DNA from: a virus
Length of the DNA stretch: 64,000 bases
Direction: 5' to 3' (one strand)
Virus record (IMG/VR): IMGVR_UViG_3300035158_000222
Span: 1 to 64,000 of that record
Translations under genes and position numbers: made by a program
In this document: positions 11,339 through 38,923 of the stretch, one piece after another
Position numbering within the stretch: position 1 is the first letter of the stretch
How the letters are laid out: each line of letters starts with the position of its first letter
The notes under the pieces: generated by a model
What the model was told of the DNA's origin: nothing
Databases searched by the model: none
Seen by the model: the letters and a program-made list of their open reading frames with translations, nothing else

Positions 11339-11453
11339 CTCCGGGCTGCCCGCCTCTTGGAACCGCGAGGCGAACAGTAGGCTCATGCGGGTTCGAAGTG
11401 CACGAGTGCTGTTTATAAATCCCCATGCTTGTTGATAATGAAACAGCCCGGAG
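11339..11453 (-). other. Intergenic fold closed by a 10-bp perfect inverted repeat
   Basis: CTCCGGGCTG/CAGCCCGGAG, inner CGCCTC/GAGGCG. Confidence 0.55.
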
Positions 11454-16935: not shown

Positions 16936-16991
16936 ATTTTATCAAAGATAAATACCCCTGTCAAGTAGGGGTACGGGGGTATTTATCCACA
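16936..16991 (-). promoter_or_regulatory. Sigma70 promoter with 12-bp inverted repeat and DnaA box
   Basis: TTGACA-17-(TGn)TAAAAT; GATAAATACCCC (16947-16958)/GGGGTATTTATC (16976-16987); TTATCCACA 16983-16991. Confidence 0.75.
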
Positions 16992-16995
16992 GGGC

Positions 16996-17051
16996 AGAGC
17001 AGCACAAGTTTCCGAGCGGACCACTAAACACTCGAACCCAGGTGCCGCTCT
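16996..17051 (-). ncRNA. Hairpin RNA with apical loop UUUAGUGGUC
   Basis: AGAGCGGCAC/GTGCTGCTCT and CGAGTG/CGCTCG helices, each needing G-U on minus strand. Confidence 0.6.
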
Positions 17052-17060
17052 AACCAATGG

Positions 17061-17074
17061 CGAACTTAAGTTCG
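17061..17074. repeat. Palindrome CGAACTTAAGTTCG copy 2 (intergenic)
   Basis: Exact; 16 bp 17060-17075, abuts stop codon. Confidence 0.95.
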
Positions 17075-17075
17075 C

Positions 17076-17258
17076 TTATTGGTATTTCTTCTTGAGTTTC
17101 GCCATGAATTCCATAGCAGGCTGCTTAAAGTAGAAGCCCAATATGAAAGTGGCTACTGGTACAAGAACTTGAGAAGCTTCTTGAGCAATAAAAGCAGAGG
17201 CAACAGCGCCGCCAACTACGATTATTGCCAAGATAGCCATAGTGGTTTCTTTTGACAT
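17076..17258 (-). CDS. Small two-TM holin-like protein
   Basis: Two hydrophobic helices, GFYF, basic tail. Confidence 0.6.
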   Translation of the reverse strand: MSKETTMAILAIIVVGGAVASAFIAQEASQVLVPVATFILGFYFKQPAMEFMAKLKKKYQ

Positions 17259-17279
17259 AATAGTAGATTTATATGTTAA

Positions 17280-17588
17280 TTATCTAATCGCAGTTGTTCT
17301 TACTACTTTGAAGGGGCGCCGTATAACGACTGGGTTTCCACCCATTTCTCCTGAAAATTTCAGGATGTAGTCACCTACCTCGCTCGATGTCCAGAATATG
17401 TACCAGAGTCCGTCTGATCTCTTGTAAGGCCCACCGTTAAGCGTATCATTTGCCACTACAGTTCCTCTGGAAGTGGTTATCTCCCATGCTGGATTGTCAG
17501 GATCTGTCAAGACCCCCATCGTATTACGATAGGTACACTCGAAATAGACGGTATTCCCTAATTCAAATGTCTTGGTAGTGTGTAACAT
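17280..17588 (-). CDS. Ig-like virion structural protein
   Basis: GNTV...LTDP...SDGLWY...GDY pattern. Confidence 0.6.
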   Translation of the reverse strand: MLHTTKTFELGNTVYFECTYRNTMGVLTDPDNPAWEITTSRGTVVANDTLNGGPYKRSDGLWYIFWTSSEVGDYILKFSGEMGGNPVVIRRPFKVVRTTAIR

Positions 17589-17593
17589 ATATT

Positions 17594-20500
17594 TTATTTT
17601 TTATAAATCTTTAATGGATAACCCATACCGGCTCCTAATCCGAATCCCAGATGCTGCTGTTCTCTATCCAGTGTTATAGTTCCAGCGAACCCGGAACTAA
17701 TTGTTCTCATCGCATCCATTTCACCAGCGAATCCGGCTTCTTCTTCCTGTATTAGCAGGGCATCGCCCGTAAAGGCCGCAGAAACGGTCCTTAGGAGACT
17801 AGAATCCGCGGTCCATTGTCTCTGTTCTACTGCCTTCAAGGAGGCATCAGACGAGAAGTCGGCCCCCACAGTCCGCAAGAGACTTGAGTTGCTGCTGAAC
17901 TGGACCTCTGCTACTACATATAGGTTGGCATCTGCAGTGAACATGTCAGCTACAGTGCGCATGATAGACGCATCTCCTGATATGCTATCGGATATTACTC
18001 TTAACAGACTTGCATTGGCGTTGAATATCACATTTGTAGTCTTCACCAGGTTAGCATCGCCATTAAACTGATTTTCTTCTAGTTTGTACAGATTAGCATC
18101 ACCAGTAAATGTGTCTATTATCACCTTATTCAGACAGGAGTCTGCAGTAAACGTTGTACTTAGTATCTTCAGTAAGACCGCTCCGCCGGAGAACTGGTCT
18201 GATACAGACCGTTTCAGGTTACCATCTGCGGTTATAGTGAATGGCAGTACTGCGATGAGGTTAGCGTCTCCGATAAAGGAATCTGCTACCGTCCGTAGGA
18301 GGCTGCAGTCAGCGCTGAACTGCGCGTCAACCACCTTCTTCAAAGAAGAGTCTGAAGTGAATTGATTCTGTATTATAGCCAGTATTGCCGCATCACCAGA
18401 GAATGTAGCCGTTACTGTAGCTTTCAGATTAGCGTCACCTTCCCAGTAGAAGGCGCCTAGAGCTAGAATGCTGGCATCTCCAGTCCAGGAATTTGAGACA
18501 GTCTTCACAAGGTTACAGTCCCCTGACCAGTAATCTGTACCGATTCCCCTGATAGACGCGTCACCAGTAAAGCTGTTCGTGATAACTCTAAGTAGGCTTG
18601 AATCGCTGCTAAATACTGTAGCTTCTGTAGATATCAGACTAGCGTAACCTGTGAATACGGCGCCTACGACTCTTAATAGGTTAGAATTTGAACTGAAAGT
18701 ACCCAATTCTGATGACTTACAGTTCGCATTTCCGGTAAAGGAGCCATAAACTGTCGCCAGAAGATTCGCATCAGACAACACTGTCAGAGCTATTGTTCTT
18801 AGGAGACTACTATCCCCGCTGAACTGGTCCGTAATTATAGTCCTTAGATTAGCATCTGATGTATATGACGAACTTAAGTTCGCGAGTAGGTTAGAATCGG
18901 CCGTAAACGATGTAAGCACTATGCGCAACAGCACAGCATCTGCGGTTATTGACTGCGTTATTACCGCTTTTAGGCTAGCATTAGATGTAAATATATCAGA
19001 AGCAGTTCGTAACAAGTTGGCGCTACCAGAGAAGGACGTCTGTACTGCTGCAGTAAGGCTAGCATCCGCAGTTAGGGACAACTCTACAACACGCAATATG
19101 CTTGCTTGGGACGAGAACTGCTGACTTATGGTCTTCAATAAGCACCCATTACCTGTAAAAGTCGTCGCTATTCCAGCCTGTAGACTGGCATCAGAAGTGA
19201 ATGTATTAGAGACCAGTTTTACAAGATTAGCGTTTCCGCTAAATTGCGAGACTATATCAACTGCTTCAAGATTGGCATCTCCGTAGAAGAATACTGTCGG
19301 TATTATAAGTAGATTCGAATCACCAGAGAATTGCTGGCTTACCTGTCTCAGGAGAGACGCGTTACCGGTAAATGTATTACCGATAACTTTTAGCAGTACG
19401 GCATCCACGGTCCATGAAGCTACTTCTGTCTTAAACAGATTCGCATCTGAACTGAAGGTATTTGCCGTCTCGACCTGCAGATTAGCATCTCCAGTGAACT
19501 GCTGCGCGATCACTCTGAGCAGACTAGCATCACTGCTAAATGTATTTACAAGCAGCTTAAGCAGAGAAGCATCTCCATAGAAGATATTCTGTTCTATGCT
19601 AAGCAGACTAGCATCTGAGCTAAACTGGGCAGCTACGACTTTCAGTAGGCTTGCATCACCAGACACTGTATTCTGTACTGCCTTGTACAGGTTAGAGTCA
19701 CCACTGAAGCTGGCGCTTACTTCGCGCTTCAGGTTAGCATCAGAAGAGAATTGCTGTGATGGCGTTGAAGTTAGGTTGGCATCACCTGTAAACTGTACAG
19801 AAATTGCACCGGTTAGGTTCGCATCGGCAGTCCACGACTGTGTTACTATGTGTAACAAGCTGGCATCTGCCGCAAATGTATCAGAGATTACTCTCTTCAA
19901 ACTTGAATCAGAGGTGAGAGTAAAGCTCACTTCCAGTTTAAGATTCGCATCTGAGGTAAACACATTCGATAATGTTTCTATCAGATTAGCATCTCCGCTG
20001 AAGGTAGCGCTGACTATACGCAGCAGGCTGGCATCAGATGTATATGTCTGTAATATACCGACCTTAAGACTTGAATCACCGCTAAATGTGGCAGACACGT
20101 TCTTCTTTAAGTTAGTATCACCAGAGAAAGTATTTACTCCAACCTTCTTCAGGCTGGCATCACCACTGAACGTTGCAGATACTATCTTCCTTAGATTTGC
20201 GTCAGCAGTATATGAGTCTATGTGATGTGTCGAAATGTCAAGTAGTGTACCGTATTGGCTGCCATATGCCCATGCCGGGAACAATCCTCTCAGCTCCTCG
20301 CTGTAAAGGTATGAATCGCCAGAGAAAGTATTCTGCTCCGCACCGGTCAAGTTAGCATCGCCCGTAAATGTGTCTATATAGGTGTTAATCAAAAACGTGT
20401 CAGAAGTGAAGGAGTTCTCAACTACTAATAGGAGCGAAGAACTGCCGCTGAATGTATTCGCCTCTGTATCTGTCAGATTCGCATCACCTACAAAGCTTTG

Positions 20501-23500
20501 TACAACCGTGCCAACGAGATTAGCGTCTCCGCTAAGGATATTAGAGATGGCCAATCTCAGGTTGGCATCGGCTGTGAGCACAAGATATAGTATTTTCTTT
20601 AGACTTGCATCTGCAGAAAACACCTGATCGATTTGTTTTTGTAGGTTCGCGTCCCCGGCAAAAGAGTTCTGTATTGCTCTCTTTATACTACAATCACCAG
20701 TAAACGCCTGCGAAATTGTTGCTGTTAGGTTTGCATCACCAGTCCATGCATTACTTTCGACTGACTTCAAGGATGCATCACCACTAAAGCTGCTTGTAAT
20801 TTCGGACCTTGTAAGGTTCGCGTCCGCATTGAAGGACGCAGCCAGTACCGCTTTCAGGGAGGCATCTCCCGCGAAAGTAGTACCGACAACATACTTCAAT
20901 GAAGCATCACCTGTAATACTTTGTATTACAGTAGTTTTAAGATTAGAGTCACCTGTAATGAGGCTCTGTACGGCCCTCAGAAGGCTTGAATCACCTGATA
21001 TGGTATCAGACACCACCCTAAGTAGATTCGCGTCGCTACGGAGCTCCTGTGGCGTTATACGCAATAGTGAGGAATCACCTGTGAATTGCCCTAATTCTAT
21101 TGACTTTAGTGAAGCACTTCCCGTAAACACTGCAGTTACTACCCGTAACAGCGAACTGCCGCCTGTAAAGCTCGTAATTTCCTCTGATCTTAGCGAAGCA
21201 TCACCTACGAATGTATTAGATATATTAATTAGTAAACTTGCATCTCCGGTAAAGACAGTAGATACACCGCCCACGAGGTTTGCGTCCCCGCCGAATGAGG
21301 CTGTTATCACCTTGAGAAGTGATCCGTCAGCCACGAACGTCGTCGATTCTATAGACTTCATACTGGCATCACCAGTAAAACTGTCTGTTATATCGATCTT
21401 TTTCAGGTTAGCATCCGACGTTAATGTATTGGTTTCTTCACCGGTTAGATTCGCATCGCCTGTGAATGATTCTAATTGTATCATTTTGAGGCTCGCATCG
21501 CCCGTAATCGTATCATAAATGATACGCTTTAGGCTCGCAGATGATACGAATGTATCTGAAATTGTGATCAATAGACTGGCATCGGCCGTAAACTGTGCAG
21601 ATTCTGCACCGATTAGATTTGTATCGGCTGAGAATGTAGCGCTTACTTCTTTCTTCAGGTTACCGTCACCATAATAGAATACTGTCGGGACAATAAGAAG
21701 GTTACCGTCACCATAGAATGTGGCGGTTATTTCTTTCAGAAGACTGGCGTCAGCTGTTGCAGAATTTGCAACTACTCCTACTAAGTTAGCATCACCGGTG
21801 AAGTTGGCACTTACGATCCGCAAGAAAGAACCATCCGATACAAATGTATTGGATAGTACCCTCTTAAGAGAACCGTCACCCGTGAATGTATCTTGTATAT
21901 CAGTCTTCTTTAAATTTGAGTCTCCACTGAATGAATCTACTTCAGCTGTTGTCAGATTAGAATCACCCGCAAACGAAACGTTTACAGTTGTAAACAGATT
22001 GGTATTACCAGAGAATGTAGCACTTACTACGCGCTTAAGAGACGCATTACCTGTGAAGGTATCAGTCCCCTCTATCTTCAGACTGGCATCTCCGTAGAAA
22101 AATACTGTAGGTACAAACAAGAGATTACCATCGCCTGAGAATGCAGTGCTCACTGCGCCTACCAAGTTAGCATGTCCGTGGAAATCAACAGATACTTCGC
22201 CCACTAGATTAGAATCTCCGGAGTATGTATCTGTGGTTATTCTGAGTAGACTGGCATCAGAACTGAATGTATCCGATAGGGCTATGAGTAGACTAGCATC
22301 TCCATAGAATGGCGTCTCATATGAGTTGATCAATACAGTATCACCAGAGAAGGTAGACTCCTCGGTCTTAAGTAGGTTAGTATCGCTAGAGAATGTATCA
22401 GATTCTATGCTCTTCAAGTTAGCATCACCGTAGAATGGTGAGTCAAGGATGTTTCTTAGATTAGCATCCCCGGAGAATGTGGCTGCTATGTTCGTGATCA
22501 GCATTGCATCTCCCGTGAAGTCGTCCAAGTATGTATCTGTATCTGTGGGATCGCCTTCTAGTACAAATGTGTTGGGAGTCTTCTGGTTATTGTATGCAGC
22601 ATTGATCCATTCATCATCCTCCCTAGAATCCATGACCCACATTTCGTCGATCATTCCGTCCATCCAGTGACCATCACTATTAGAGGAACCAATTCTGAAT
22701 TCAAAGTCAGAGTTCTCTATAGAGCTCACGTTAGTTCCGTTCTGAGTAGATCCCTGCTGTGAACCGTCTACATAGAACTTAAAGTCCTTAGTAGCTCCAC
22801 CTATCCATGTAGCTGCTAGGTGATACCAGGTGGTAGCAGACGGACTCCAGTTAACAAGAGCATCGTCTTCACCGGGACCGTGCTCGTAGGGATTCATTCT
22901 GAATCTATAGTTAACTCCGTTGTAGTTATGACTCCATGTATATGCTCTTTTGCCCTCGGCTCCGACAGTATTGTATTTGCTCAAAAGTCCGAATGTCTGT
23001 CCACTCGTAGGTAGTGTCTCTATCTTATTCCAGCATAGGAACGTATGTTCTGTAGTCAGGTCCAGTCCTTGCTGATTAGCATTTGTTATATATAGGTGTT
23101 CGTTGTTAGATCGTTCAAAGTCTCCGGCTGTATCTATTTGTCCACTTGAAGAGCTCTGCACAGTATTATAATCAGTAAGATCATTCTGGTTTCTAGTACT
23201 ATCGGACCTTGTTCCGGATGTTTCGTCCAGGTGCCAGACGCCCTTGAAGTTGTCGTTCCATACGTTAAAACTTCCATATATACCTTCTTCGTGTGGCTGT
23301 GTCTTACCCGATTTGTTATACCATACATAGATATTTGTATTGGTAGAGCTTGATATGCTTGGTACCTTGACCCAGACCTGAGCCGTTCCGTTAGCCGGGT
23401 CTATGTCAGTAGTAAATTCCCTCACCTCGCAAGGTAGGATATTAGTACCGGCAGCATCAGAGCTAAACCGGATGTCACCACCGCCATTGAGCGCGGGGTA

Positions 23501-24517: not shown

Positions 24518-24528
24518 ATTAGGTTATT

Positions 24529-26373: not shown

Positions 26374-26396
26374 ATGTTTAGTTTATATTAAGTAAA

Positions 26397-27110
26397 TTAT
26401 TCAAACGTAAGAATGACGCTTAGACCTTTTGGTGCAGTTCCTGAGTGCACAGCGTCTACGTCTATGTAGATCTCGTCGCCGGTAGCGATGTCATCATTGG
26501 CCGCGTTTATGACTTCGTCGTTCGCGTAGAACTCGTCACCAATCGTCACCTTCGTTGAGAGCATGTCGACATCGGCACCTGCTCTCCGTCGCCTTACTTG
26601 TACGTCAGTAGTTCCTGTTATACCTTTGGTATGAACAGTGCAAAGAACGTCTTTGAGTTCGTATCCGTTAAAGTCAGCCGGTACCGGGATAGCCACGGCA
26701 CCATCTCCGACAGCTACGTCTTGCGAGCTATCAAAGACATTAATACCGAACATCTTCTTACCAGCTGCGTCTGTAAGATCATCCATCATTTTTTTCGTAA
26801 GCACTAGGGCCATACGATATGTTTTGCTAGCGATGTTCTTGATGCTAGCACCAGATCCTTCTTGGTTTCTGGTTACGGTTAAGGTATCAGTACTTCTGGC
26901 AGTACATCGAACGATCTCAACATTAGGATCGTCAGACGGATCACCATAGTCAGTATTATTCCACCAGACAAGGTTAAACTCCCCATCCGAAGACGGATCA
27001 GGAAGCTTGGCGCCATGGCCACCAGACAGAACAATGCTCACGGCACTGTCGTCATAACCAGTGGATACTGTTACCTTACCAAAGTTTTTTACTGCGTCGA
27101 ATGTTGCCAT
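26397..27110 (-). CDS. Virion fibre-associated structural protein
   Basis: EIVRCTARSTDTLTVTRNQEG motif; C-terminal IDVDAV...KGLSV beta-sandwich. Confidence 0.7.
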   Translation of the reverse strand: MATFDAVKNFGKVTVSTGYDDSAVSIVLSGGHGAKLPDPSSDGEFNLVWWNNTDYGDPSDDPNVEIVRCTARSTDTLTVTRNQEGSGASIKNIASKTYRMALVLTKKMMDDLTDAAGKKMFGINVFDSSQDVAVGDGAVAIPVPADFNGYELKDVLCTVHTKGITGTTDVQVRRRRAGADVDMLSTKVTIGDEFYANDEVINAANDDIATGDEIYIDVDAVHSGTAPKGLSVILTFE

Positions 27111-27136
27111 ATGTTTTGGTTTATTATTAATTTTAA

Positions 27137-30100
27137 TTAAATTCCTAATTCAAGGCCAAACTCTTCCATACCTGTCAGACCCCATCCTGGGGCATTGGCC
27201 ACGCTGACACAATCTATAGTTCCTGCGAAGCCTGCGTCCTGCAGCGTAGATTCAAGCACCGACAGACCGGCAAATGATTCTGTGCGCTCTACGTCAAAGT
27301 ATGCGTCACTATTGAACTGATTCGACAGTACGCCCTTCAGACTTGCATCAGCTGTAAATGTATTCTGGATATCCTTTTGAAGACTCGCATCTCCAGAGAA
27401 CGTATCAGACACTGTAGCAGATAGACTGGCATCTGAACTGAATGTATCTGATACTACTCTGAGTAGACTAGAATCACCAGAGAATTGTGCTGTATGCAAT
27501 GTTTGTATCAGGGCATCACCTGTGAATGTATTAGCTTCGACTGACCTTAGGCTGGCATCTCCGGAGAATGTAGCAGGTACTACAGCCAACAGACTTGAAT
27601 CAGCAGAGAACGTATTCGCCTCTAAACCTACGAGATTCGCATCACCCGTGAACGTTGCTGTATGCAGGGTCACAAGAGCTGCATCTCCGTTGAATGTATC
27701 AGAGACAGATACTGCTAGATTCGCATCTCCAAAGAATCTTGGATATGTAATATATGAATCACCTGTGAATTGATTTGAAAGTACGGCCGCCAGATTCGCA
27801 TCACATGTAAACGATCCTGTTATGATCTCAGCAAAGTGCGCATCACCTGAGAATGTATTAGATACCACACCTGTCAGGCTCGCATCACCAGAGAACGTAG
27901 CAGCAATTACCTTCTCAAGATTAGCATCTCCTACGAATGTATTCGACTCTGCCCCTACAAGGTTGGCGTCACCTGTAAATGTATCTTCTATGTATCTGTC
28001 ACCCATGAATATACCGCCGTACATTGGGCCGTATCCCCAGGCTCCGTACAGGAATTTACTGTCACTGTCGTATAGATATGCATCACCGGTCCAGTGTCCC
28101 TTACTAATTACTGCATCTCCGGTAAAGGTGTTAGGAATCGAGTATGTCACTTTTACCTCGAGGTGGTCGAGATTCGCGGCTATCGATTTGCCTGCATACG
28201 ACTCTATCCCTACGTCTATAATAAAGTTATCGTCATTTATATCAGACGGTGACAGGGATAATCCCCATAGATCAGAGATAGTTCCGTATATAGCAGTGGT
28301 CTCTGATGTTGACAGGGTCACTTCTTTCTCTCCATAACTTGTATCTGGTTTCACTACCCTCACATAGAATCTTCCGTCAGCAGTATCGACAGTATCCTCA
28401 TAGTGCTCAAGAGCCACCTCTACTCCGAGTATTGTAGCGTGAGACGGTACTGTGAATCCGAAGTGGTGATATGATTGCCACTTAGATCCTAAGCCAGACT
28501 GCGAAGCAGTCGCGTACTGATCATCACTTACGTACGCCTGTGGCGCATTGGTCCACTGGTTATTTGATCCTGTACCGGAAGGAGATTGCCAGTATGTTGT
28601 TTTAATAGTGTATGATATTTCAACTCTTTCAAGATTACAGTCAGCAACGAACGTGGTTGACTCTATGCTCTGCAGACTTGCATCTCCTGTGAAGGTATCA
28701 CTTTCTGTGCCCAGAAGACTGGCATTACCAATAAACAAATTCTGTGAAGTATCTTTAAGGCTTGCATCACCTGAGAATGTGTTCGATACTTCACCGACCA
28801 GATTGGCATCAGAGCTAAATGTTTGCTCTACAATACTTACTATGCTGGCATCTGCAGTAAATATGTCGCTGTACTGCCGCATGATCATGGCTCTTCCAAG
28901 CCACGTATTAGAGACAACTCTCTTAAGGCTAGAGTCTCCGCTGAACGTGTCGCTTATATCGGTCTTAAGAAGATTGGCATCAATATCGAATCCATTACCT
29001 CCACCATATAAGAACTTAAGTTCGTTGATAAATATCTCATGACCAGATACTCCGATAGTAGGATGATGTATCCTAAAGATAACATGATTATAGTTAGCAG
29101 TATCTATATAGTCAGACATATCTAGCGGTAGGAAGTATGTGTGTGAATAGTCTCCGGTAGGATTCTTTTTGAAATCCTGGGTTTGTGCTGTTATGTTATC
29201 CCAGCCGGTTGTATTTGTATTATATAATTGGAATCTGATATTATGTTCGGTTGTAGCATTATAGTAGCCAATCAATCTGACCATTAGCTGCTGGCCGCTT
29301 GTAGGCACTTCATAGAAATCAAAATCAACTTGCATTCCCGGGGTTACCCCAACATTTTCTATGACAGATAGTCTGCTTCCGTTATGGTCCCACGTATCTT
29401 GAAGACTACCGCCGCTTACTGATCCAATATTGACCGTCATTGATTTGGCATGTTGCCACGACAGAAGGTAGGAATCTCCATAATAAAATACTGTAGGTAT
29501 TATTAACAGATTCGCATCTCCAGTAAATGTTTCCGTATATGTACTTATAAGATTGGCATCACCCGTGAATGTATCAGAGATCACGCGCTTTAAGCTTGCG
29601 TCTGCCGAATACGTATCTGAGTATGTTTCGGCTGTGATCTTCACCGCTATAATTCTGTTTAGCTTAAAGTCTGATTCGTTACCAGCTCCAGTATCCTGAG
29701 TAGCACCTTCTAGCTCTAACGTCTTACTTCCTGCTGCCATACCAGCAACACCAAGCGAGATAATAGAACTATTGCTATTATCCTGATTATCAGAATTCGT
29801 CTCACCATACATGTAGCCATCCATTGTGTCTGCACCGAATTTCATTGCTATACCGGTCCCATTATTATTATCCCTGCATCCGAAGAACGAGTGTGCCATT
29901 ACAAGATAATCACCGTCATCCAGATATCCTGTTTGCGTTAATATATCTTGCCAGGTAGCAGCCCCACTATCGAGAGTAACAGTGCCTTCATTCTCGTTCT
30001 GGATATTCGTGTTGTTCATTATCGGAATAGCACAGATTCTTGCTCTCTGGATTATAGCCTCGTCAGCCCAGCCTTGACCCTGATATCGTATATCAAATGT

Positions 30101-30847: not shown

Positions 30848-30848
30848 A

Positions 30849-31142
30849 TTATGTATATTTATGTCTTACTTCTAGCTTGCCCTTCATTTTCTTCTTGCCT
30901 TCGTAGTTGTCAACTATCCTCTCTATTGATGTTATAAAATCCATTAGGTCGTACTGTCCGACCTTTGCAAGTGATTTAAGATTGAGCTTGAGATTGTAGA
31001 TGATCTCATCTGCCGTGGGCTTTTTCTTGAGTTCCTTGATCCTGATCAGGTATTTCTTTTCGCAGTATTCACGTTCGTCAATATACCAACGAGGTCCGCG
31101 GTATTTACCACATATAGTTTGTTTACATCCACGACAGTCCAT
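30849..31142 (-). CDS. Hypothetical protein
   Basis: N-terminal CxxC; TAATATG coupling. Confidence 0.6.
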   Translation of the reverse strand: MDCRGCKQTICGKYRGPRWYIDEREYCEKKYLIRIKELKKKPTADEIIYNLKLNLKSLAKVGQYDLMDFITSIERIVDNYEGKKKMKGKLEVRHKYT

Positions 31143-31152
31143 AGAATTAAAG

Positions 31153-31431
31153 TTAACCTATAAAGTGTACGGCGGCTTTCCAGATAGCGTATACGACCCC
31201 ACCGATAATCGAAACGCCTACTACTCTACCCACCCAAATAAGAAACTTCTCTACCCACTTGGCAGAGAACTTTTTCTCGTTCTCCTTATTCATATTCTCT
31301 ATCTTTTTCCCGAGATCTTTAAAGCCATCACCGACTTTTTTGTCGAGATTCTTGTGGCCTTCCTTGATATGTTTGATGTCGGTTTTTACTTCTCTCATAT
31401 CTACTTTAAGTTGTATGATATCTTTTTCCAT
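31153..31431 (-). CDS. Coiled-coil + TM holin/XhlA-like protein
   Basis: Coiled coil, FSAKWVEK, C-terminal TM. Confidence 0.6.
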   Translation of the reverse strand: MEKDIIQLKVDMREVKTDIKHIKEGHKNLDKKVGDGFKDLGKKIENMNKENEKKFSAKWVEKFLIWVGRVVGVSIIGGVVYAIWKAAVHFIG

Positions 31432-31435
31432 ATTA

Positions 31436-32473
31436 TTAGAAGTTCGCGCCTTTCGGAAGTTCATTGAAGATCTTGGATGAAACGGTTATGCCATAGCCAT
31501 TATTATTCTGTACGTAGATCGAGGCCGCAGCCTGTCTCTCGTTCCGCACAGGCCGTAATTGGCCACCGACTATAATACCTTTTCGTCCTGCTCCTTCGCC
31601 TTCCAAGACGAACTTTTTCTCAAAGTCTTTAATAATACGATTTGCATCATCAGATATTTGAACGACATTGGGTTTATCTACCAATGTCCACGGATTAAAC
31701 ATGAATCGTGAGTCGAACCATTCTTCCCGGAACTTCTGCCACCCATCAGGATGTAGGGCATCTGGGGTTCCTCTCGTACCCCAGCTGTTAGGACCTGCAA
31801 TAAACTTTCCAAGTTTATCTATACCAAACTTGGCCCACCACATACAGTGAGCCCAGGTAGACCTTACCGGTGGCTTTGGTTCGAATGATCCCCAGTTACC
31901 TGCACCATCGCCGCGCAATCCTCCAACTACTCCCCAGTTGTCTCTAATAGCCATAGCAAATAAGTCCATATTACTTGCCGCACTGAATGTGCGATACTCT
32001 TTGGCTTGCAGGATTTGAGCTATTCTATCCATCTCAGGAGTCTTCCATGTTCTCTCGATCATGAATTCTTCTCTCGGGGGATTTCCATTTTCATAGCTGG
32101 ATACCAGTCTTTCCGGTAGTGATCCCCAGTTCACCAATAACTTAGCGCCATCACGGATATATGCACCGCCATGGAGTCCAAGGCTGATCTGAGAATAGAT
32201 AGCTTTTGCCGATTGATCCCGGTAGTATCCGGTCTCAACAGCATCAAGACCAGAACCGTAATAACTCCAGCCTTGTCCTACACAAGAACTGGAACCGTCC
32301 TGGTCCTTGAATGGAATAACAATATCAAGTTCTCTCTCGATATCGAATCCCTTTTCCCAATCTACGGGTTCTCCGGCCGCGGCTACTTCTTCGTAGCCAT
32401 AGTCCCTTACATCTATCTGATCCGGGACACAACCAGTCCCATAGGGAAATCTTGGTCGGAAGAAATTAAACAT
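31436..32473 (-). CDS. Papain-like (C1) cysteine peptidase
   Basis: KDQDGSSSCVGQ, WAHC, NSWG. Confidence 0.85.
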   Translation of the reverse strand: MFNFFRPRFPYGTGCVPDQIDVRDYGYEEVAAAGEPVDWEKGFDIERELDIVIPFKDQDGSSSCVGQGWSYYGSGLDAVETGYYRDQSAKAIYSQISLGLHGGAYIRDGAKLLVNWGSLPERLVSSYENGNPPREEFMIERTWKTPEMDRIAQILQAKEYRTFSAASNMDLFAMAIRDNWGVVGGLRGDGAGNWGSFEPKPPVRSTWAHCMWWAKFGIDKLGKFIAGPNSWGTRGTPDALHPDGWQKFREEWFDSRFMFNPWTLVDKPNVVQISDDANRIIKDFEKKFVLEGEGAGRKGIIVGGQLRPVRNERQAAASIYVQNNNGYGITVSSKIFNELPKGANF

Positions 32474-32491
32474 AGTTGTGGTCTTAGTTAA

Positions 32492-32911
32492 TTATGGTAC
32501 CAACGTGCAGTCCCCTGAGAATGAATCAGAGACTACAGCAAGAAGACTCGAGTCAGCATCGTATGAAGCTGCTATTGTTGTCAGAAGACTTGAGTCACCA
32601 GCGAACGTATCGCTAACAGTGATAGCAAAAGCCCCAAGACCAACAGCGTCTCCTAATTCCATGATAGAAAGAATCCCAGCACCTGAGTCCTGGATAACAG
32701 AAACTTGAGCCGGATACAATATATCGAATGTATATTGCCTATCCGCTGAAATTAAGAAGCCGTTGCCCGCAGAAACTGTAGTAGAGTCGAAGCTGATGTA
32801 GCAATCAGCCGAAGCAGATACGGTGATCTGTTTAGCTTTTCCACTAAGATCCTGCGACTGTGATGTGCCGGTAAACGACACATTGATTGCATTTGATTTT
32901 GAATAAGCCAT
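32492..32911 (-). CDS. Small beta-sandwich structural protein with three C-terminal FxGDxxL repeats
   Basis: FAGDSSL, YDADSSL, FSGDCTL at 14-aa spacing. Confidence 0.75.
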   Translation of the reverse strand: MAYSKSNAINVSFTGTSQSQDLSGKAKQITVSASADCYISFDSTTVSAGNGFLISADRQYTFDILYPAQVSVIQDSGAGILSIMELGDAVGLGAFAITVSDTFAGDSSLLTTIAASYDADSSLLAVVSDSFSGDCTLVP

Positions 32912-32915
32912 AGTT

Positions 32916-33671
32916 TTAAGCCTTAATTATTTTATCTCTATAAATAAGTTTATAGTCCCTAATAGGAATTTCCCTCTGGCGGATATCCTTGTTGCCGATT
33001 ATCCTGATATGGCCTAGGCCATGTTGCCAGTTTGGCACACCCTCGATATAGTCCTGCTGCATTTTACACAGGCACCCGGTCTCCATCCATTCGTAGTCCC
33101 CGCTTCTTTTAGTAGCGTAGAACTTCCCAAGACGGTGAGTATGAGCAGATGCTCCGCTAATACCCTCCTTCTCGAACTCGGCCCTGCATGTATATGCAGA
33201 GTGCTTTCTAAAGTTCTTGCCATGCTTTGCTATGAATTCATCTCCTATTTCGAAGGAGTCCATATAGGCTATCCCAAGCTCGTCTAGCTTGAGGAGTTTA
33301 TTTAATTGTAAGTCTCTTAGATATGCGAAGGCTTTTGCATGTCTCCACATGTACTTCTGAAGTCTATCCATGTGGTTGCTTTTGAGTAACACTTTCTGTG
33401 AGTTCGGGCATATCTCGCTGAGATGTTCCCAGTACCCTCGTACCATGTCCAGCTCTTCTTGCAAGCTATTAACTCTCTTTGGGTCTTTAGAGAATTTAGA
33501 GATAGCGTAGAAATCATGCCACTCATGCATGAGTATGATCTCCGGCTGGATGATCTCACAAAATTTGAATGCTACTGATAGTGCCCTCTTGTCCTCAAAC
33601 GGGACGTGTACGTCGTTTAGCGTTATGATATCCATCGATTCACACGCCTCGACTTTCGCTTTGTTGAGCAT
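32916..33671 (-). CDS. Calcineurin-like metallophosphoesterase
   Basis: DVHVP, SNH, HG, HTHR, GCLC, NWQHG. Confidence 0.8.
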   Translation of the reverse strand: MLNKAKVEACESMDIITLNDVHVPFEDKRALSVAFKFCEIIQPEIILMHEWHDFYAISKFSKDPKRVNSLQEELDMVRGYWEHLSEICPNSQKVLLKSNHMDRLQKYMWRHAKAFAYLRDLQLNKLLKLDELGIAYMDSFEIGDEFIAKHGKNFRKHSAYTCRAEFEKEGISGASAHTHRLGKFYATKRSGDYEWMETGCLCKMQQDYIEGVPNWQHGLGHIRIIGNKDIRQREIPIRDYKLIYRDKIIKA

Positions 33672-33691
33672 AGTAGTCTATTATATTTGAT

Positions 33692-33786
33692 AAAAAAAAC
33701 TTTCATCGTATGTGGTCCGATCCACGATGAAAGCTTTCTTCGATGGGTACGCAAAGGAACTGCGTTTAACCTAGGATCGGTTACCC
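33692..33786 (-). terminator. Terminator hairpin preceded by a three-helix fold
   Basis: CTTTCATCGT/ACGATGAAAG stem + T8; upstream GGGTA/TACCC junction. Confidence 0.65.
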
Positions 33787-34529
33787 TATTTTGCGTTTGT
33801 ATCCTTGACTATTCCGCCCATGACGTCATGGCGGGCTACTTCTGTCTGATTCGGGTATGTAACTTTCGTCATCTTCCAGTGATCACAATGAACTGAGAAG
33901 TCGCACCAGAGATCCTGGCCCTTGTCTCTGAGTTCATAACAGAACTTAATATCTTCTCCTATCGGCTTCTTTCCTTTGTCAGGAACAAACTCTTCCTTGA
34001 ACCAAGGCTCTTCAAGATTATCGAATACAGACTTATGTATAAGGCAGCATGACATTCCAAAGGCGTCTACCTTTTCTATGCCTTCTGGCTTAAGAACGTA
34101 TTCGAGACCGTCTTCTTTGTCTTTGCCGTTGGCGAATCTGAACACCATGGGGGCTGGCCTAAGAAGTCCGTCTTCACATAGTTTGAAGTTACAGGTTACA
34201 CCTGTTATTATATCTTTTCCGGTAGCGAGTAATTTCTCTATCGCGTCTGGTGGAGGTACGGTATCCGCATCGACAAAGAACAAGTAATCGTAACCGCCGT
34301 TCAGGAATGCAGACACGCACAGGTTGCGCGCTACTGATACCGGTGAATAGTTTTGTGGCGGGAACAATATCATCTTCATGCCTCTCGACCAGGAGATCAC
34401 CCTGAGCATGAGATCAGTGCGGATATTCCCCATGTTGGGAATAGCGACAAAGATAGATGGCATTTGATCTAAGGTTTTGCCGTCTACCTCTTTGGGTTTG
34501 AATTCTCTATTCCCCATCTTCGTCGGCAC
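33786..34529 (-). CDS. GT-A (family 2-like) glycosyltransferase
   Basis: ARN, YLFFVDAD, GMSCCLI, PWF, GEDIKFC. Confidence 0.85.
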   Translation of the reverse strand: MPTKMGNREFKPKEVDGKTLDQMPSIFVAIPNMGNIRTDLMLRVISWSRGMKMILFPPQNYSPVSVARNLCVSAFLNGGYDYLFFVDADTVPPPDAIEKLLATGKDIITGVTCNFKLCEDGLLRPAPMVFRFANGKDKEDGLEYVLKPEGIEKVDAFGMSCCLIHKSVFDNLEEPWFKEEFVPDKGKKPIGEDIKFCYELRDKGQDLWCDFSVHCDHWKMTKVTYPNQTEVARHDVMGGIVKDTNAK

Positions 34530-34977
34530 GTACCAACTTAGGTTCGCATCCTGTGCAGGATTCTATTTCACTGGCGTCCTTCAGTGGAAGGCTCTCAGTA
34601 AAACTTTCTACCATAGTTGGTTCGTCGTAATTATTCTCTATCCGTCCGTCCGGATAAAGATACGTAATCTGCTTGACCTTTTTACCTCCTATTTCTATTT
34701 GCCAGCCAACCATGTTGACTTGAAATTTCGGGAACAGGTTCCCGGTATTGGCAATAGTTCGTCTGAAATAAATCAGAGTAGCTCCATCTGGAACTCCCAT
34801 CTTGAATTCTCTGAGCCCTGAATCTTTATGTTTAGGGATGAGCTTAAAAACTCTAATCTTTTCAAAGTCCGGATTCCTGTGATGAAACTTGAATTGTTCC
34901 TTCTCCCCATCTGGAGATTGATTAACGACTCTGCCGTCGTCTAGTTCAAGCTCCCACTTATAGTATTCTCTGAGCAT
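34507..34977 (-). CDS. Hypothetical virion-module protein
   Basis: WELELDDG..V.Q, LIYFRR, GWQ. Confidence 0.7.
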   Translation of the reverse strand: MLREYYKWELELDDGRVVNQSPDGEKEQFKFHHRNPDFEKIRVFKLIPKHKDSGLREFKMGVPDGATLIYFRRTIANTGNLFPKFQVNMVGWQIEIGGKKVKQITYLYPDGRIENNYDEPTMVESFTESLPLKDASEIESCTGCEPKLVRADEDGE

Positions 34978-35082
34978 ATTGTTTAGTGGTCTAGAGTGCG
35001 ACTGGGCACATCCAGAATAGTAATCTTTTTATTACACTCTAAGAGCAAAACCTAGTTTTCGTCGAGCCCGAAGGCCTCATCG

Positions 35083-35628
35083 TTAGCGAGGATAGAGTTT
35101 TTTGACAATAGGTTTCCAGTCGTCATAGGTCTTATAGCCGCGCTTAGCTGCAGATGTTCTCATGTCTGCATTAAGGTTGGTAGCTACACGGATCAAATCT
35201 AGTACTGTTTTCTGTTTTCTTAGTTTCTTTCCTGATATTTTGTCTTTCATGTTTTTTGTTACGACCTTTGACTCCCTGATCCATGATTCAAGAACAGGGA
35301 TAACTATATCTGCTTGTGTTTTTTTGACAACCAGATATGGCCTTACTGCCTTCAGCACATCTACTATCTCTTGAGTTTTAAGAGTTTGCCATGTAGCTTT
35401 TGCGCTTGCGTTGCTTCTATTGGCAATATATACAGCGCCTTTGCCTAACATGCCTCTTATATACTCACATACCCATTCGTACTTAATGTGCTGTGTAATG
35501 TTAAGGACTGGGCGAATGGCAATGTATTCATTACCATTGTTGTTCTGTACTCTAACTCCGATATGGATGGATCCATCGCCATCGATGAAGCCTGCGAGCC
35601 ATGACAGAAATTGAGTCTTAGTTGACAT
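35083..35628 (-). mobile_element. Free-standing LAGLIDADG homing endonuclease
   Basis: WLAGFIDGDGSI, ITQ, PYLVVKK.QA. Confidence 0.9.
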
Positions 35629-35656
35629 AGATTTTATATTAGTTACTTATATAATA

Positions 35657-35685
35657 AGTATAATACTCTATCTAGTTATTGTCAA
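35657..35685 (-). promoter_or_regulatory. Sigma70 promoter of the LAGLIDADG gene
   Basis: TTGACA-17-TATACT. Confidence 0.8.
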
Positions 35686-35695
35686 CTAATGATCA

Positions 35696-36205
35696 TCAAT
35701 TTTCGTCGTAAGAGTAATTGTAAGTTTGCTGGGTCATGTTACCTTGTGAAGCACCCGTAGATACTTCCAGCATCATAACCAGGAAGTCTGTAGCTTCACC
35801 TTGTGTGTTAAGGGTTCCTGAAACAGAAGCCTTAGCACCGGCTGTAGCTGTAGACACCGCCGTGTAACCAGCATTAGTTGTAGCTAACGAAGGTGTGGCG
35901 TAAGTTGAAGTGGTTTTGTAGTAATCCTTTACTACTCCGGCTTCCGGCTCAGTGCCGGCTCCCCAGAATTTGAAGTTGGTAACCTGAGTGTCTGGCTCAG
36001 TAGTACCTAATTCAAAGTGTAACCACTTCTCGTAAGAGTAAGCGTAACCCGCACTTGGGATGGTGATCGGATTGGATGTTCTGTTTCCAGAACTGTTGGT
36101 GCAGTTATCGGCTGTGATAAAGTCGATACCTGTACCGGTAATATCCGTTTCCGTAGGACCAGCGCCAAAGTTACAAGTTAAGTTTACATCAGCTGGACTT
36201 GCCAT
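35696..36205 (-). CDS. Thr/Gly-rich beta-sandwich structural subunit
   Basis: NPITIP..G..YSYEKW, NFKFW, terminal YSYDEN strand. Confidence 0.7.
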   Translation of the reverse strand: MASPADVNLTCNFGAGPTETDITGTGIDFITADNCTNSSGNRTSNPITIPSAGYAYSYEKWLHFELGTTEPDTQVTNFKFWGAGTEPEAGVVKDYYKTTSTYATPSLATTNAGYTAVSTATAGAKASVSGTLNTQGEATDFLVMMLEVSTGASQGNMTQQTYNYSYDEN

Positions 36206-36248
36206 AGTTTTGGTTCACTATGTTAATTAATAAATAAAACCGTACGGC

Positions 36249-36449
36249 CTACTTCGGCCCTACAGTCTTTTGAGCTGGAAATTCAGCAGCATCATTGCTG
36301 ATGACCTCGAATAACCCGCCCTTGCCTTCAGCAACAATAGCGTCATACCGAGAATTCGGCATAGATACTATGTTACCCTTTGAGGCGTGAAACTCAGGAC
36401 ACATGAAACTCGCGTGCTGAGCGTCGCCTTTGAATCTTGCTTTTACCAT
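36249..36449 (-). CDS. Hypothetical protein
   Basis: CATATG start on coding strand. Confidence 0.55.
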   Translation of the reverse strand: MVKARFKGDAQHASFMCPEFHASKGNIVSMPNSRYDAIVAEGKGGLFEVISNDAAEFPAQKTVGPK

Positions 36450-36467
36450 ATGTGTTACAGATAAATT

Positions 36468-36556
36468 AAAAACTGCCTGTCGGCAGCTGATACGAGCAAG
36501 TAGAGCAACGTATCAGTTGCCTATAAACTTGCTCCGACGACTAATCGCAGGAGTCC
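36468..36556 (-). promoter_or_regulatory. Attenuator-like leader (terminator/antiterminator)
   Basis: CTGCC-GACA-GGCAG-T5 competes with a 13-bp helix 36482-36494/36509-36521. Confidence 0.5.
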
Positions 36557-36577
36557 ACACATTATACTTTAATTATA

Positions 36578-36946
36578 TCACAGTTTTGCGTCAAACTCAA
36601 TATGGCACTTCTTACATACGGGCTTATAATCATCTAGATTGCGCCTGTACTTGTGATCTATATTGGACCACTGAGTTGCCATGTTGTCGCAGTATGTGCA
36701 TTTGTGAGTTCTGGCAGCGCCCTTATGGCGGCCTACCCACATATGTATAGCTTTATATTTAGCATCACTTCCTTTCCATTTAGAGCTATTACTGCTCTGC
36801 ATATGGGGCCGAGATATTCCTTTAGTAGGATTATTCTTCCCCTTCCAATAACTCGTGCGTCCTTTGCACGAATTACTTATCTTTTCTTTGGTTTTGGCAG
36901 AATGCTTTCTGCCTAGATTTGTTTTGTGACCCTTTTGAAAAGCCAT
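36578..36946 (-). mobile_element. NUMOD3 + HNH-type homing endonuclease-like gene
   Basis: GRKHSAKTKEKIS, WKG, HMWV, CTYC, VCKKCH. Confidence 0.8.
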
Positions 36947-36989
36947 AAATATAAGTAGTTATAATATGTTCCACACATTGTTACTTATA

Positions 36990-37439
36990 TTATATCAAAG
37001 ATTTGTCCTGTGGACAACTTATGCCCTTCCGCAATATCTCTTTATTGAACAGACCTTTGTCAATTTTATTCACTAATGCATGTAAAGGAAAGTAATTTAT
37101 TGACGTATTTCCTATCTTATCTACCCTAACTTCAAGGACAAACCGCCTATCTACATTGATTCCTGCAATGATTTTAGCCTGTAATTTCTGGTCACCGATC
37201 TCTAATTTGCCTCCGGATGATATAACGGAAGCTACTGCCTCGTTTAGAAAATAGTAATAGTGATACTTTCTTATGCTAATCTTAGGCGTTATCCGTGATT
37301 TATTAACGAATGTTGAGACCGGATGAGTCAATGCCAGTGCAGATATTGACACATCGGCAGGAATGTCTTCCCATGTAAAAGGCTTGTCCCCCGTGTTTTC
37401 CACAAACCTTCGGTTATCATTAGTGTAAGCAATAAACAT
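36990..37439 (-). CDS. Hypothetical virion-module protein
   Basis: FIAYTND..F.E, WEDIP, YYFLNEA. Confidence 0.7.
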   Translation of the reverse strand: MFIAYTNDNRRFVENTGDKPFTWEDIPADVSISALALTHPVSTFVNKSRITPKISIRKYHYYYFLNEAVASVISSGGKLEIGDQKLQAKIIAGINVDRRFVLEVRVDKIGNTSINYFPLHALVNKIDKGLFNKEILRKGISCPQDKSLI

Positions 37440-37497
37440 ATTTTAGCTAGGATTAGTGTAATTCACCTTAGTGAATGAAATTGTCCTATGGAAGTTA

Positions 37498-37511
37498 CGA
37501 ACTTAAGTTCG
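37498..37511. repeat. Palindrome CGAACTTAAGTTCG copy 4 (intergenic)
   Basis: Exact; 7 nt after a stop codon. Confidence 0.95.
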
Positions 37512-37518
37512 CACTTTA

Positions 37519-38154
37519 TTAAGTGGTTATCCCCATCTCTGGGGCGTCTACTGTACCGGATTCCGGTAGGGTTAACTTATATGGCCCGGCACTCCAGTCC
37601 GTCCCGGCATTGCAGTATCGCACGCCGTGTGTTCCTGGAGTAAACTCAGTCCATGTAGGGCTGGCCTCTGTCCCTTCGTTTGCATAGAAGCTAATAGAAG
37701 GAGTTGACCCCGAATATCTGTATCGGATCTGTATTACGTGTGCCAGTGAACTTGTACTAGGAACGGCCGCATCATACGGTACTTCCGCGCCTAGGTTAAA
37801 ATATATAGACTCACCAGCGCTAGGAGTAACACTAGCTTCAACATAATTTGTATCTCCCATAAGGCGGTTAGGACTAGCAGCACCGGCCGTGGCGGCAGCT
37901 GGCTTCCAGTCGTCACCAGGCGATGTAGATGTCGTGTCAACAGCATAGAGCATTGGTATGTTCCCATTACCGGTTGTTCCGATAAAAATCTCTTTGGCCA
38001 CAGATGCGCCGGGTGTAGTCTGCGCAGGGAAGGTTAATGCATTGTCCCATGCCTCTACGTATGGAGCTACGGATAAGGATTGAGAGAATGTAACCTTGAA
38101 TACGTATCGCGCGTTCTGGTTACCGGCTCCTGTGATTTGTAATGGAATAGCCAT
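37519..38154 (-). CDS. Thr/Gly/Pro-rich beta-sandwich structural subunit
   Basis: Composition and position in structural operon. Confidence 0.7.
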   Translation of the reverse strand: MAIPLQITGAGNQNARYVFKVTFSQSLSVAPYVEAWDNALTFPAQTTPGASVAKEIFIGTTGNGNIPMLYAVDTTSTSPGDDWKPAAATAGAASPNRLMGDTNYVEASVTPSAGESIYFNLGAEVPYDAAVPSTSSLAHVIQIRYRYSGSTPSISFYANEGTEASPTWTEFTPGTHGVRYCNAGTDWSAGPYKLTLPESGTVDAPEMGITT

Positions 38155-38182
38155 AGGTTTAGGTCTTGTATGTTAGTAAAGT

Positions 38183-38218
38183 GCGGACCCCGCCCCGACC
38201 TTTAGACGCAGGGCCCGC
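38183..38218 (-). other. GC-rich intergenic hairpin
   Basis: GCGGGCCCTGC/GCGGGGTCCGC 11 bp with G-U on minus strand. Confidence 0.55.
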
Positions 38219-38227
38219 GTAAGATGT

Positions 38228-38596
38228 TTAGCCATCTTGCCTTGGGACGTTGTCGAATCTCAAGGATTTCTTAGTCTTCTGTCTGTTTTTATCCCGTACG
38301 ATCTTCTCAGCTTTTAGAAAGTGTTGAAGAGCTTCAGGATCGGAACAGTTAGGCATAGCCAGGTCGTCCCTGGTAAGCTTAGCAACGCGTTCCCGCATCT
38401 CTTTGGGTACGTGCTCAAGCTTCTCTTTCATTCCTACTATATCGGATGAAAGATCTACTTCCTTTACTGTGTCAGTCTCAGGCGCGGGTATAACCCTGTC
38501 CTGAGGATTGTTGTCAGGATTTTTAATCTCCCGACCGTCGACGTTTGGAGCGCCACCTGCTTGGGCCTCCATGTCTAATGGTTGTCCTTTTGACAT
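38228..38596 (-). CDS. Hypothetical protein
   Basis: ORF in structural operon. Confidence 0.7.
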   Translation of the reverse strand: MSKGQPLDMEAQAGGAPNVDGREIKNPDNNPQDRVIPAPETDTVKEVDLSSDIVGMKEKLEHVPKEMRERVAKLTRDDLAMPNCSDPEALQHFLKAEKIVRDKNRQKTKKSLRFDNVPRQDG

Positions 38597-38604
38597 AAGT
38601 GGTC

Positions 38605-38907
38605 TTAGTTATTGTTTATAAAGTCTAGTAGTCGGCCGACTACTACAGCCATGAATGAGGAGTTGCCATCAATGACCTTCTCAAGGAATTCGACATCTTC
38701 CTTGGTAAGCTCTAGCTCTTCCTTCGCATCCAGGATCTTACCGCCAAGACTATAAGCCCTAACGTTTTCTCCTGAACCAGGCTGGCCCTGATGCGTCTCA
38801 CAAGCAGACACAAGGGCTGATCGATAAGTCATCGCCGCTGTCGGCGTTAACATTATCTTGCCACCGTTTAGGGTGGTCATCTCTTGATCAAGATTTTTTA
38901 ATTTCAT
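38605..38907 (-). CDS. Hypothetical protein (fibre-adjacent, possible chaperone)
   Basis: AY.LG.KI...ELELT.ED..FL pattern. Confidence 0.7.
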   Translation of the reverse strand: MKLKNLDQEMTTLNGGKIMLTPTAAMTYRSALVSACETHQGQPGSGENVRAYSLGGKILDAKEELELTKEDVEFLEKVIDGNSSFMAVVVGRLLDFINNN

Positions 38908-38923
38908 AGTGGTCTATATTAAT

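Follow-up and report, generated by a model that had tools for sequence, protein, structure and literature searches.

Does a phage carry an RNA that pairs with the translation initiation regions of its own messages? The question is raised by IMG/VR record IMGVR_UViG_3300035158_000222, a 99,954-bp phage contig with a GC content of 44%, of which the first 64 kb are hereafter called the window. Nearly all long open reading frames (ORFs) of the window lie on the minus strand. At positions 16996–17051 of the window, a hairpin at the end of an operon displays a loop complementary to the word AGACCAC, which stands just before the start codons of several genes. A preliminary description of this locus had proposed that a small RNA (sRNA) or 3' untranslated region (UTR) of the phage pairs with these initiation regions, either as a repressor or as a surrogate anti-Shine-Dalgarno (anti-SD) sequence. 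Judging from sequence comparison, we favor, with a probability of approximately 0.45, an antisense RNA derived from the 3' UTR that would repress a small set of phage genes, with an action like that of the c4 RNA of phages P1 and P7, to which it is unrelated. This antisense half of the proposal was retained given an accessible, invariant loop and the placement of its complement at starts (P = 8e-5); the anti-SD half was not.

Fold, covariation, and strand scores establish the hairpin as an authentic structured RNA, which is encoded by the transcribed strand and closes an operon at its 3' end. The minus-strand RNA of 56 nt folded with an energy of -28.7 kcal/mol (z = -5.18) and presented a 10-nt apical loop, UUUAGUGGUC (17019–17028), in which AGUGGUC at 17019–17025 is the proposed seed; the 151-nt region around the element yielded z = -5.67. 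The 16996–17051 hairpin is the core of a longer one (hairpin 2, 16988–17059, minus strand) that consists of an outer stem of ~19 bp, an internal loop, an inner stem of 6–8 bp, and the apical loop, with z values of -5.2 to -5.7. On its 5' side stands a short hairpin (hairpin 1, 17060–17075, minus strand), which follows immediately after the stop codon of a gene for a 60-amino acid (aa) membrane protein and which in this phage is one copy of a dispersed palindrome, GCGAACTTAAGTTCGC. The two hairpins together form a structured element of ~115 nt. The element (16988–17075) is situated in the 3' UTR, with the stop codon (17076) on its 5' side and, on the same strand, a terminator-like hairpin and its U-run (16947–16987) on its 3' side, so that the core lies between the short hairpin and the terminator-like one. 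Both this stop-to-terminator location and the conserved, accessible seed are those of a 3'-UTR-derived sRNA.

For comparison, 17 metagenomic loci were retrieved by alignment of homologs of a neighboring 102-aa protein (60–80% identity), and comparisons of the element covered 12 sequences, namely that of this phage and those of 11 loci that were long enough. The element was present once in each of the 11 loci that extend far enough, at the same syntenic place, and the order after the 60-aa gene was shared: a variable first hairpin, the long hairpin, a terminator, and a promoter. Hairpin 1 was predicted at the same position in 12 of 12 sequences despite differing in sequence. Application of RNAalifold to the 12 sequences recovered the 16996–17051 hairpin and extended its outer stem to the ~19 bp given above. 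Paired cells amounted to 95.3% in the named structure compared with 32–47% when partners were slid by one to three columns, and compensatory changes affecting both sides were found for 12 of 25 pairs, compared with 2.9 in shuffles. The inner stem reads CAGGUG/CGCCUG in most relatives, CGAGUG/CGCUCG in this phage, and AUAAA/UUUAU in an AT-rich relative (L024). The loop enclosed by these varying stems was unchanged, with AGUGGUC being present in all 12 sequences and having an unpaired probability of 0.92–0.97 in each. Covariance-model scores ranged from 72 to 126 bits on the element strand and from 13 to 32 bits on the opposite strand, with model R1 giving 77.8 bits on the minus strand of this phage versus 13 bits on the other. 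Given these one-sided scores and the frequent G·U pairs, the transcribed strand is also the RNA strand of the element. Alternatively, an upstream CACCUG can serve as partner for the middle strand of the inner helix, and the comparative support for this pairing was equal. Because AGUGGUC is single-stranded in both forms, the element may have two states. Two independent metagenomic contigs, L012 (at the end of a 47-kb contig) and L014 (at the end of a 2.1-kb contig), both stop between hairpin 1 and hairpin 2, and these coinciding ends are probably due to assemblies that broke at the long inverted repeat.

Searches for a known identity of the element were negative. No Rfam family reached its gathering score in the window, none was found for three of the relatives at E values up to 1, and a search with the element itself at E up to 10 returned only noise far below the cutoffs. 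ARAGORN and the Rfam transfer RNA (tRNA) model revealed no tRNA or tRNA-like structure at 16970–17082, and identity as a tRNA or a known RNA family was ruled out by these searches. Scans of public collections for the exact core gave 7 viral and more than 120 bacterial matches, which are to be regarded as chance 17-mers given that none of them fits the covariance model. A DNA element resembling a replication origin was also considered at 17 kb and rejected, with GC skew showing no turn at this position. The RNA family is new, supported by covariation, and absent from Rfam, although the regulatory principle to which we attribute it is already known.

We then turn to the complement of the loop. 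Plus-strand GTGGTCT was confirmed at 32478, 34986, 38599, and 38909, which places AGACCAC on the minus strand 4, 8, 2, and 1 nt upstream of the ATG codons at 32473, 34977, 38596, and 38907, respectively. The variants AGACTAC ahead of 33671 and AGACCTA ahead of 38154 were also as described previously. Classification of these genes as late was not established, in that the motif genes are unannotated and lie among accessory genes with host-type promoters, some of them in other transcription units. In the 16 nt preceding 126 provisional starts, AGACCAC was the top 7-mer, with 5 occurrences compared with 0.09 expected (P = 4e-8). The loop word was derived solely from the relatives, with no reference to the leaders of this phage, and its complement was concentrated at starts: 5 of the 13 sense copies of GACCACT in the genome fell within -20 to +6 of primary-annotated starts, compared with an expectation of 3.8% (P = 8e-5), as did 7 of the 27 sense copies of GACCAC (P = 5e-5). 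The number of copies in the whole window (10, with 6.8 expected) did not exceed chance, and it is only the position of the word that is unusual.

The predicted duplexes between leaders and loop span 6 to 12 bp. The longest is that for gene 34977, whose leader site AGACCACUAAACA (34980–34992, minus strand) lies 3–15 nt before the ATG; as had been proposed, UGUUUAGUGGUC is a perfect 12-nt complement of 34980–34991, composed of the loop plus two stem nucleotides, and this duplex was the best predicted, at -18.9 kcal/mol. At 38907–38915 (minus strand), AGACCACU-A(UG) would form 8 bp with the loop and so reach the A of the start codon of a 100-aa gene, with the site having an unpaired probability of 0.71. 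The site AGACCAC(UU) at 38599–38605 (minus strand) comes right after the TAA stop codon of the upstream gene and 2 nt before the ATG at 38596, and would form 7 bp. Finally, AGACCAC at 32478–32484 (minus strand), 4 nt before the ATG at 32473, would form 6 bp and has an unpaired probability of 0.76. All coordinates and other sequence-level statements of the preliminary description were thus borne out, with the qualification that AGACCTA at 38154 would allow only 4 bp. The variant site AGACUAC(U) at 33673–33679 (minus strand), located 1 nt before the ATG at 33671 and reading AGACUACU, would form 7 bp including one G·U pair (GACUACU-AGUGGUC). Upstream of the same gene, the 12-nt loop of an intrinsic-terminator hairpin indeed displays CGGACCAC (33712–33719, minus strand), an 8-nt complement of GUGGUCCG and thus a possible loop-loop partner.

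Further copies of the word were found at 11315, 64694 (AUGACCACA), 89122 (AUGACCACUAUG), and 89272 (TAGACCACU-AUG), with the starts that carry them being 11317, 64696, 89120/89129, and 89279 (positions above 64,000 are those of the whole contig). At 11307–11317 (minus strand), AUGACCACUAA is a 9-nt complement of the loop over the start codon of a lipoprotein-like gene, and this site is syntenic with starts reading AUGACCACUGA in two relatives, L013 and L018. The lipoprotein-like gene is annotated at 10970–11386 (minus strand), but the ATG at 11386 is probably the wrong start; that at 11317 is more credible because it has a typical leader and because the protein then begins with MTTNKILFIIAAC, a signal peptide of the lipoprotein type. 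Three copies of GACCACT are clustered within the 200 nt that precede gene 89279–90187 (plus strand), the 302-aa product of which consists mostly of Pro/Ala/Asp repeats (PADPKPADPP-like). Comparison of the motif genes with each other revealed no paralogy, which rules out common descent of these genes as the source of the shared word, and no extended conservation was found around the word sites. A link to the VIPR array of this phage through a shared word, TTTAGTGG, was dropped as chance within a pentamer-coded array.

The position of the word, just where an SD sequence would act, bears on the proposal that the RNA serves as a surrogate anti-SD or activator that recruits ribosomes to SD-less messenger RNAs (mRNAs) or opens their leaders. 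The genes of this phage do lack SD motifs as had been stated, with SD cores being present in 8.8% of leaders compared with a background of 12.9% inside genes, and no complement of the word was detected in 16S ribosomal RNA (rRNA) of the five bacteria checked. We nevertheless regard activation of this kind as highly implausible. The word is borne by only about 6–8 of the 126 genes, with the remaining SD-less genes doing without; the energies of leader-loop duplexes are not shifted (p = 0.64); several sites overlap the start codon, which pairing would block; the element has no ribosome-binding feature; and there would be nothing to open, because leaders with the motif are predicted to be free of structure in any case. 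A related view, that of a guide hairpin that marks a regulon of SD-less phage mRNAs at their starts by means of a seed with two conformations and that possibly activates them as a surrogate anti-SD, is in our estimation very unlikely. Were it correct, the end of one transcription program would be coupled to translational control of genes elsewhere.

Alternatively, the leader word might itself be a translation enhancer that pairs with host rRNA, in which case the phage hairpin would be irrelevant or a mimic. The word does occupy the SD position. Neither GUGGUC nor AGUGGU occurs anywhere in the 16S rRNA of five bacteria from four phyla, however, and their 3' ends carry the canonical anti-SD, although these five diverse species (searched as GTGGTC and AGTGGT) may not represent the host of the phage. 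We consider this possibility extremely remote.

Among the relatives, a second complement was found at a different position. In six of them, nucleotides +56 to +70 of the ORF for a Cas4-like exonuclease (codons R-R-T-T) contain a perfect complement of 10–15 nt to the core GUGGUCCGCCUGCC, located ~750 nt downstream of the element on the same strand and with conserved synonymous positions (L013, 2346–2356; L016, 3959–3973; L018, 3610–3621; L019, 7548–7562; L020, 2667–2678; L023, 1637–1646). By our own arithmetic, the expected number of 15-nt matches in a locus of 6.3 kb is ~5e-5. A seventh relative, L017, retains at this site a G·U-compatible GACUACU, in the same AGACUAC variant that precedes gene 33671 of this phage. 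The site has been lost in L022 and in this phage, in which the corresponding residues are KRKRVKK. In addition, a 395-aa gene of L013 and L018 that is in synteny with the gene starting at 11317 begins with AUGACCACUGA, which would form 9 bp with the whole loop. On these comparisons, complements of the core recur in phage mRNAs.

These findings also bear on whether GACCACT might be a double-stranded DNA site that is recognized by a phage regulator near gene starts in either orientation, with the hairpin locus being one more such site. The word is present on both strands, one copy abuts the -35 box of a perfect promoter at 89083–89117, and a DnaA box, a promoter, and a palindrome, all of them signals at the DNA level, flank the element. 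The loop word is, however, enclosed by a helix that has been maintained by compensatory changes and by G·U pairs on one strand, features that point to RNA; the motif genes lack their own promoters; and the complement in the relatives extends to 15 nt within a coding region, longer than a typical half-site. We therefore hold a DNA site to be improbable. A sigma-70 -10 element or leaderless spacer was also considered as the origin of the word and rejected, with a full promoter at leaderless spacing being found only at gene 89120. None of 72 TAGACY sites had a -35 box scoring 5/6 or better, and the motif genes showed no promoter-like site. The leader words additionally resemble CACTATAG and CACTAAAG, which we take to be promoter cores of T7-like RNA polymerases. 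This reading was left as unsupported; a search with PF00940 (T7-type polymerase) gave no match in the phage but, with none in control genomes either, is uninformative.

Antisense action is the most economical reading of a structured, operon-terminal RNA that has an invariant accessible loop, complements at starts in this phage, and complements in its relatives. The RNA would arise as the 3' end of the operon transcript and might either be released from it, possibly by a cut at an A/U-rich stretch located 5' of hairpin 1 and with the terminator defining its 3' end, or act within it. Its loop seed would pair over 6–12 bp with GACCAC(U) 1–8 nt before or on the starts of approximately 6–8 phage genes. 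Because a duplex there would cover the initiation region, the most likely effect is that translation of a small regulon is repressed; occlusion of ribosome binding sites is the canonical mechanism of sRNAs (PMC5861419). In the relatives, the core extended into the 3' strand of the stem would pair with positions +56 to +70 of the exonuclease mRNA, and for this duplex within a coding region cleavage or decay of the mRNA would be the more likely outcome. The middle strand of the inner helix, with its two possible partners, may switch the RNA between a seed restricted to the loop and a longer exposed seed. The sequences show the structure, conservation, strand, and accessibility of the element as well as the positional statistics, whereas it is a prediction of this scheme that a discrete RNA is expressed, that it pairs, and that its effect is negative.

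Several observations weigh against an antisense role. The distribution of leader-loop duplex energies over all leaders was not shifted (Mann-Whitney p = 0.64), complements of at least 8 nt were present at chance level in every genome, and the small share of genes that bear the word (about 6–8 of 126) limits what can be claimed. Seeds of 6–8 bp are short. TAGACYACT is common to four leaders and A precedes GACCAC in all six, neither of which is explained by pairing. The hairpin was, moreover, originally found by looking for the complement of the word. In 94 kb of DNA from the relatives, GACCAC was not found 0–12 nt before starts, and start-proximal complements numbered only two or three, two of which are homologous. 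No single target can account for conservation of the loop, because L017 (in part), L022, and this phage lack the exonuclease site and yet keep the loop. Covariation between loop and target cannot be scored, given that the loop is invariant.

The principal alternative is a structural or protein-binding RNA without an antisense role, the loop of which is read by a protein and whose complementarity to an unrelated leader word is coincidental. Such an RNA might stabilize the 3' end, be processed in the manner of RNase III sites, serve as an insulator, or modify the downstream terminator in a put-like way, and the leader word might reflect, for example, a site bound by a translational regulator or some local preference in sequence. 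In keeping with this view, the element closes an operon and is directly followed by a terminator. RNase III substrates have a near-continuous helix with an internal loop, and the element likewise possesses such a helix of ~25 bp, its outer stem of 19 bp and inner stem of 6–8 bp approximating two turns of double-stranded RNA, although this resemblance is structural only. Conservation of the loop even where its known complement has been lost, counts of complementary sites at chance level, and the TA or A that precedes the leader word, which pairing leaves unexplained, also favor this explanation, and coincidence would have been helped by the way in which the complementarity was found. Opposed to it are the complement at starts of a loop word that was defined independently from the relatives (P of about 8e-5) and the second, independent complement of 10–15 nt in six relatives, both of which would have to be coincidence. 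RNase III is not known to read apical loops, so processing alone leaves the invariant heptamer unexplained. We consider a purely structural or protein-binding role somewhat unlikely, although it is the foremost competitor of antisense repression.

The statement in the preliminary description that no equivalent had been described was too strong. The loops of P1 and P7 c4 RNA are thought to contain complements of sequences that surround a ribosome binding site in their own operon and thereby to block translation (PMC12197685). Like c4 (Rfam C4), which lies in the same orientation and the same transcription unit as its targets (PMC12197685), the element is a structured phage RNA. The layout of an upstream regulator and a downstream target also resembles that of the exonuclease site in the relatives, and complements of the loop of 6–12 bp, for which pairing is predicted, are present at starts 32473, 34977, 38596, 38907, 11317, and 89120/89279. 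Unlike c4, with which it shares no similarity in sequence or structure (the Rfam C4 model was unmatched at E values up to 10), the element is located at the 3' end of an operon and has several dispersed sites, whereas c4 has one operon as its target and serves immunity in temperate phages; no lysogeny genes were seen in this phage. The c4 RNA is processed by RNase P, for which the element has no visible counterpart.

With regard to its origin, the element resembles 3'-UTR-derived sRNAs such as CpxQ and SroC as well as the prophage RNA DicF in lying within the last ~100–170 nt of an mRNA and sharing its terminator, in having an upstream A/U-rich stretch suited to RNase E and a conserved single-stranded seed, and in having several putative targets. 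It differs from these RNAs, which are of host or prophage origin and act mainly on host mRNAs through Hfq, in that its predicted targets are genes of the phage itself and in that its seed is located in a hairpin loop rather than in a linear 5' region; DicF is a described example of a prophage sRNA (PMC5069750). The exonuclease site of the relatives, at +56 to +70, recalls a site inside the coding region of a host mRNA targeted by the sRNA MicC. The MicC-ompD duplex, said to have been described by Pfeiffer et al. in 2009, is reportedly ~12 bp in length and lies ~65–80 nt inside the ORF, beyond the ribosome footprint. MicC differs in being a host sRNA with a linear seed, and decay by RNase E would be an outcome only by analogy here. 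T7-type RNase III hairpins share with the element a long, near-continuous helix with an internal loop between phage transcription units, but the element differs from RNase III sites in its invariant apical loop and alternative inner helices.

Almost no regulatory RNAs of virulent or uncultured phages are known. Most phage sRNAs described to date are those of temperate coliphages, and their targets are host genes or a single phage gene (PMC12197685). The present element combines an invariant seed with statistically placed candidate targets in its own genome and a longer candidate target in its relatives. If it acts as an antisense RNA, this would mean that a large phage operates a small post-transcriptional regulon of its own at SD-less starts, and the pairs of seed and target would constitute a ready test system. 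Even if it does not, the element still represents a novel RNA motif, conserved in these phages, at the junction between operons.

The surroundings of the element define this junction. The last gene before it (17076–17258, minus strand) encodes the 60-aa hydrophobic protein already mentioned, is syntenic in the relatives, and has the element in its 3' UTR. A consensus DnaA box, TTATCCACA (16983–16991, plus strand), reads TGTGGATAA on the minus strand, partly coincides with the 3' end of the outer stem, and precedes the next promoter; TGTGGATAA at this 3' foot is nearly invariant among the relatives. The region at 16936–16987 (minus strand) contains the terminator-like hairpin together with an overlapping sigma-70-type promoter that drives the next operon, with TTGACA at 16964–16959 and TAAAAT at 16941–16936 being separated by 17 nt. 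This promoter matches the consensus at 11 of 12 positions and has a TG extension, and the relatives maintain it as TTGACA-N17-TAGACT-N8-ATG. It drives the genes for a conserved 128-aa protein and for the exonuclease, which places the element exactly at the junction of two co-oriented units. The first gene of the second unit (16541–16927, minus strand) encodes a protein of 128–131 aa that is conserved in 8 relatives. An ORF of 138 aa on the plus strand (16340–16756) overlaps this gene and is an artifact, although it yields tblastn matches; it is the minus-strand ORF that is the real gene, given its conservation in 8 relatives and the conserved promoter that precedes it.

Few other proteins of the window could be named by PHROGs and Pfam. 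Those named include tail fiber-like proteins at 17.6–30.8 kb, a metallophosphoesterase, a glycosyltransferase, an HNH endonuclease, and the Cas4-like exonuclease. No relatives of the phage were found among GenBank phages, nor in IMG/VR by means of its other proteins. The 345-aa product of one motif gene (31436–32473, minus strand) is common to eleven viral contigs, with 36–59% identity and no other synteny, and the gene behaves as a mobile accessory gene on the basis of this distribution. These contigs (L001–L011) have neither the motif nor the element, a result that is uninformative because this accessory gene is all that they have in common with the phage. A giant ORF of 5,943 aa occupies 46276–64000 of the window and runs on to 64107 (minus strand); no Pfam domain was detected in it at E values below 0.01 when it was searched as four overlapping pieces. 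Seven tRNA genes were identified at 767–1436 with ARAGORN and the Rfam tRNA model.

The palindrome that forms hairpin 1 in this phage, and also in five relatives, is a perfect 14-bp sequence, CGAACTTAAGTTCG, with 10 exact copies and one with a single mismatch within and between genes. The exact copies are at 9140, 17061, 18869, 37498, and 57951 in the window and at 65142, 66180, 67460, 89067, and 95343 in the remainder of the genome, and the near copy is at 29011. The intergenic copies at 65142, 67460, and 89067 lie a few nucleotides from TTGACA or TTGACG -35 boxes, and the palindrome may be the operator of a dimeric regulator.

With regard to initiation in general, T occupies position -1 in 70% of the genes of the genome, and A accounts for 40–53% at positions -7 to -2. 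Such A-rich, SD-less starts with T at -1 are an unusual signature for a host that nevertheless uses TTGACA/TATAAT promoters and DnaA boxes. In seven relatives (L013, L016–L019, L022, and L023), the promoter TTGACA-N17-TAGACT has an ATG exactly 8 nt past its -10 box, and gene 89120 of this phage has a perfect TTGACG-17-TATAAT (89083–89122) with the ATG 6 nt past the -10 box. Together with the lack of SD motifs, these near-leaderless promoters suggest that leaderless mRNAs or mRNAs with very short leaders are present in this phage group.

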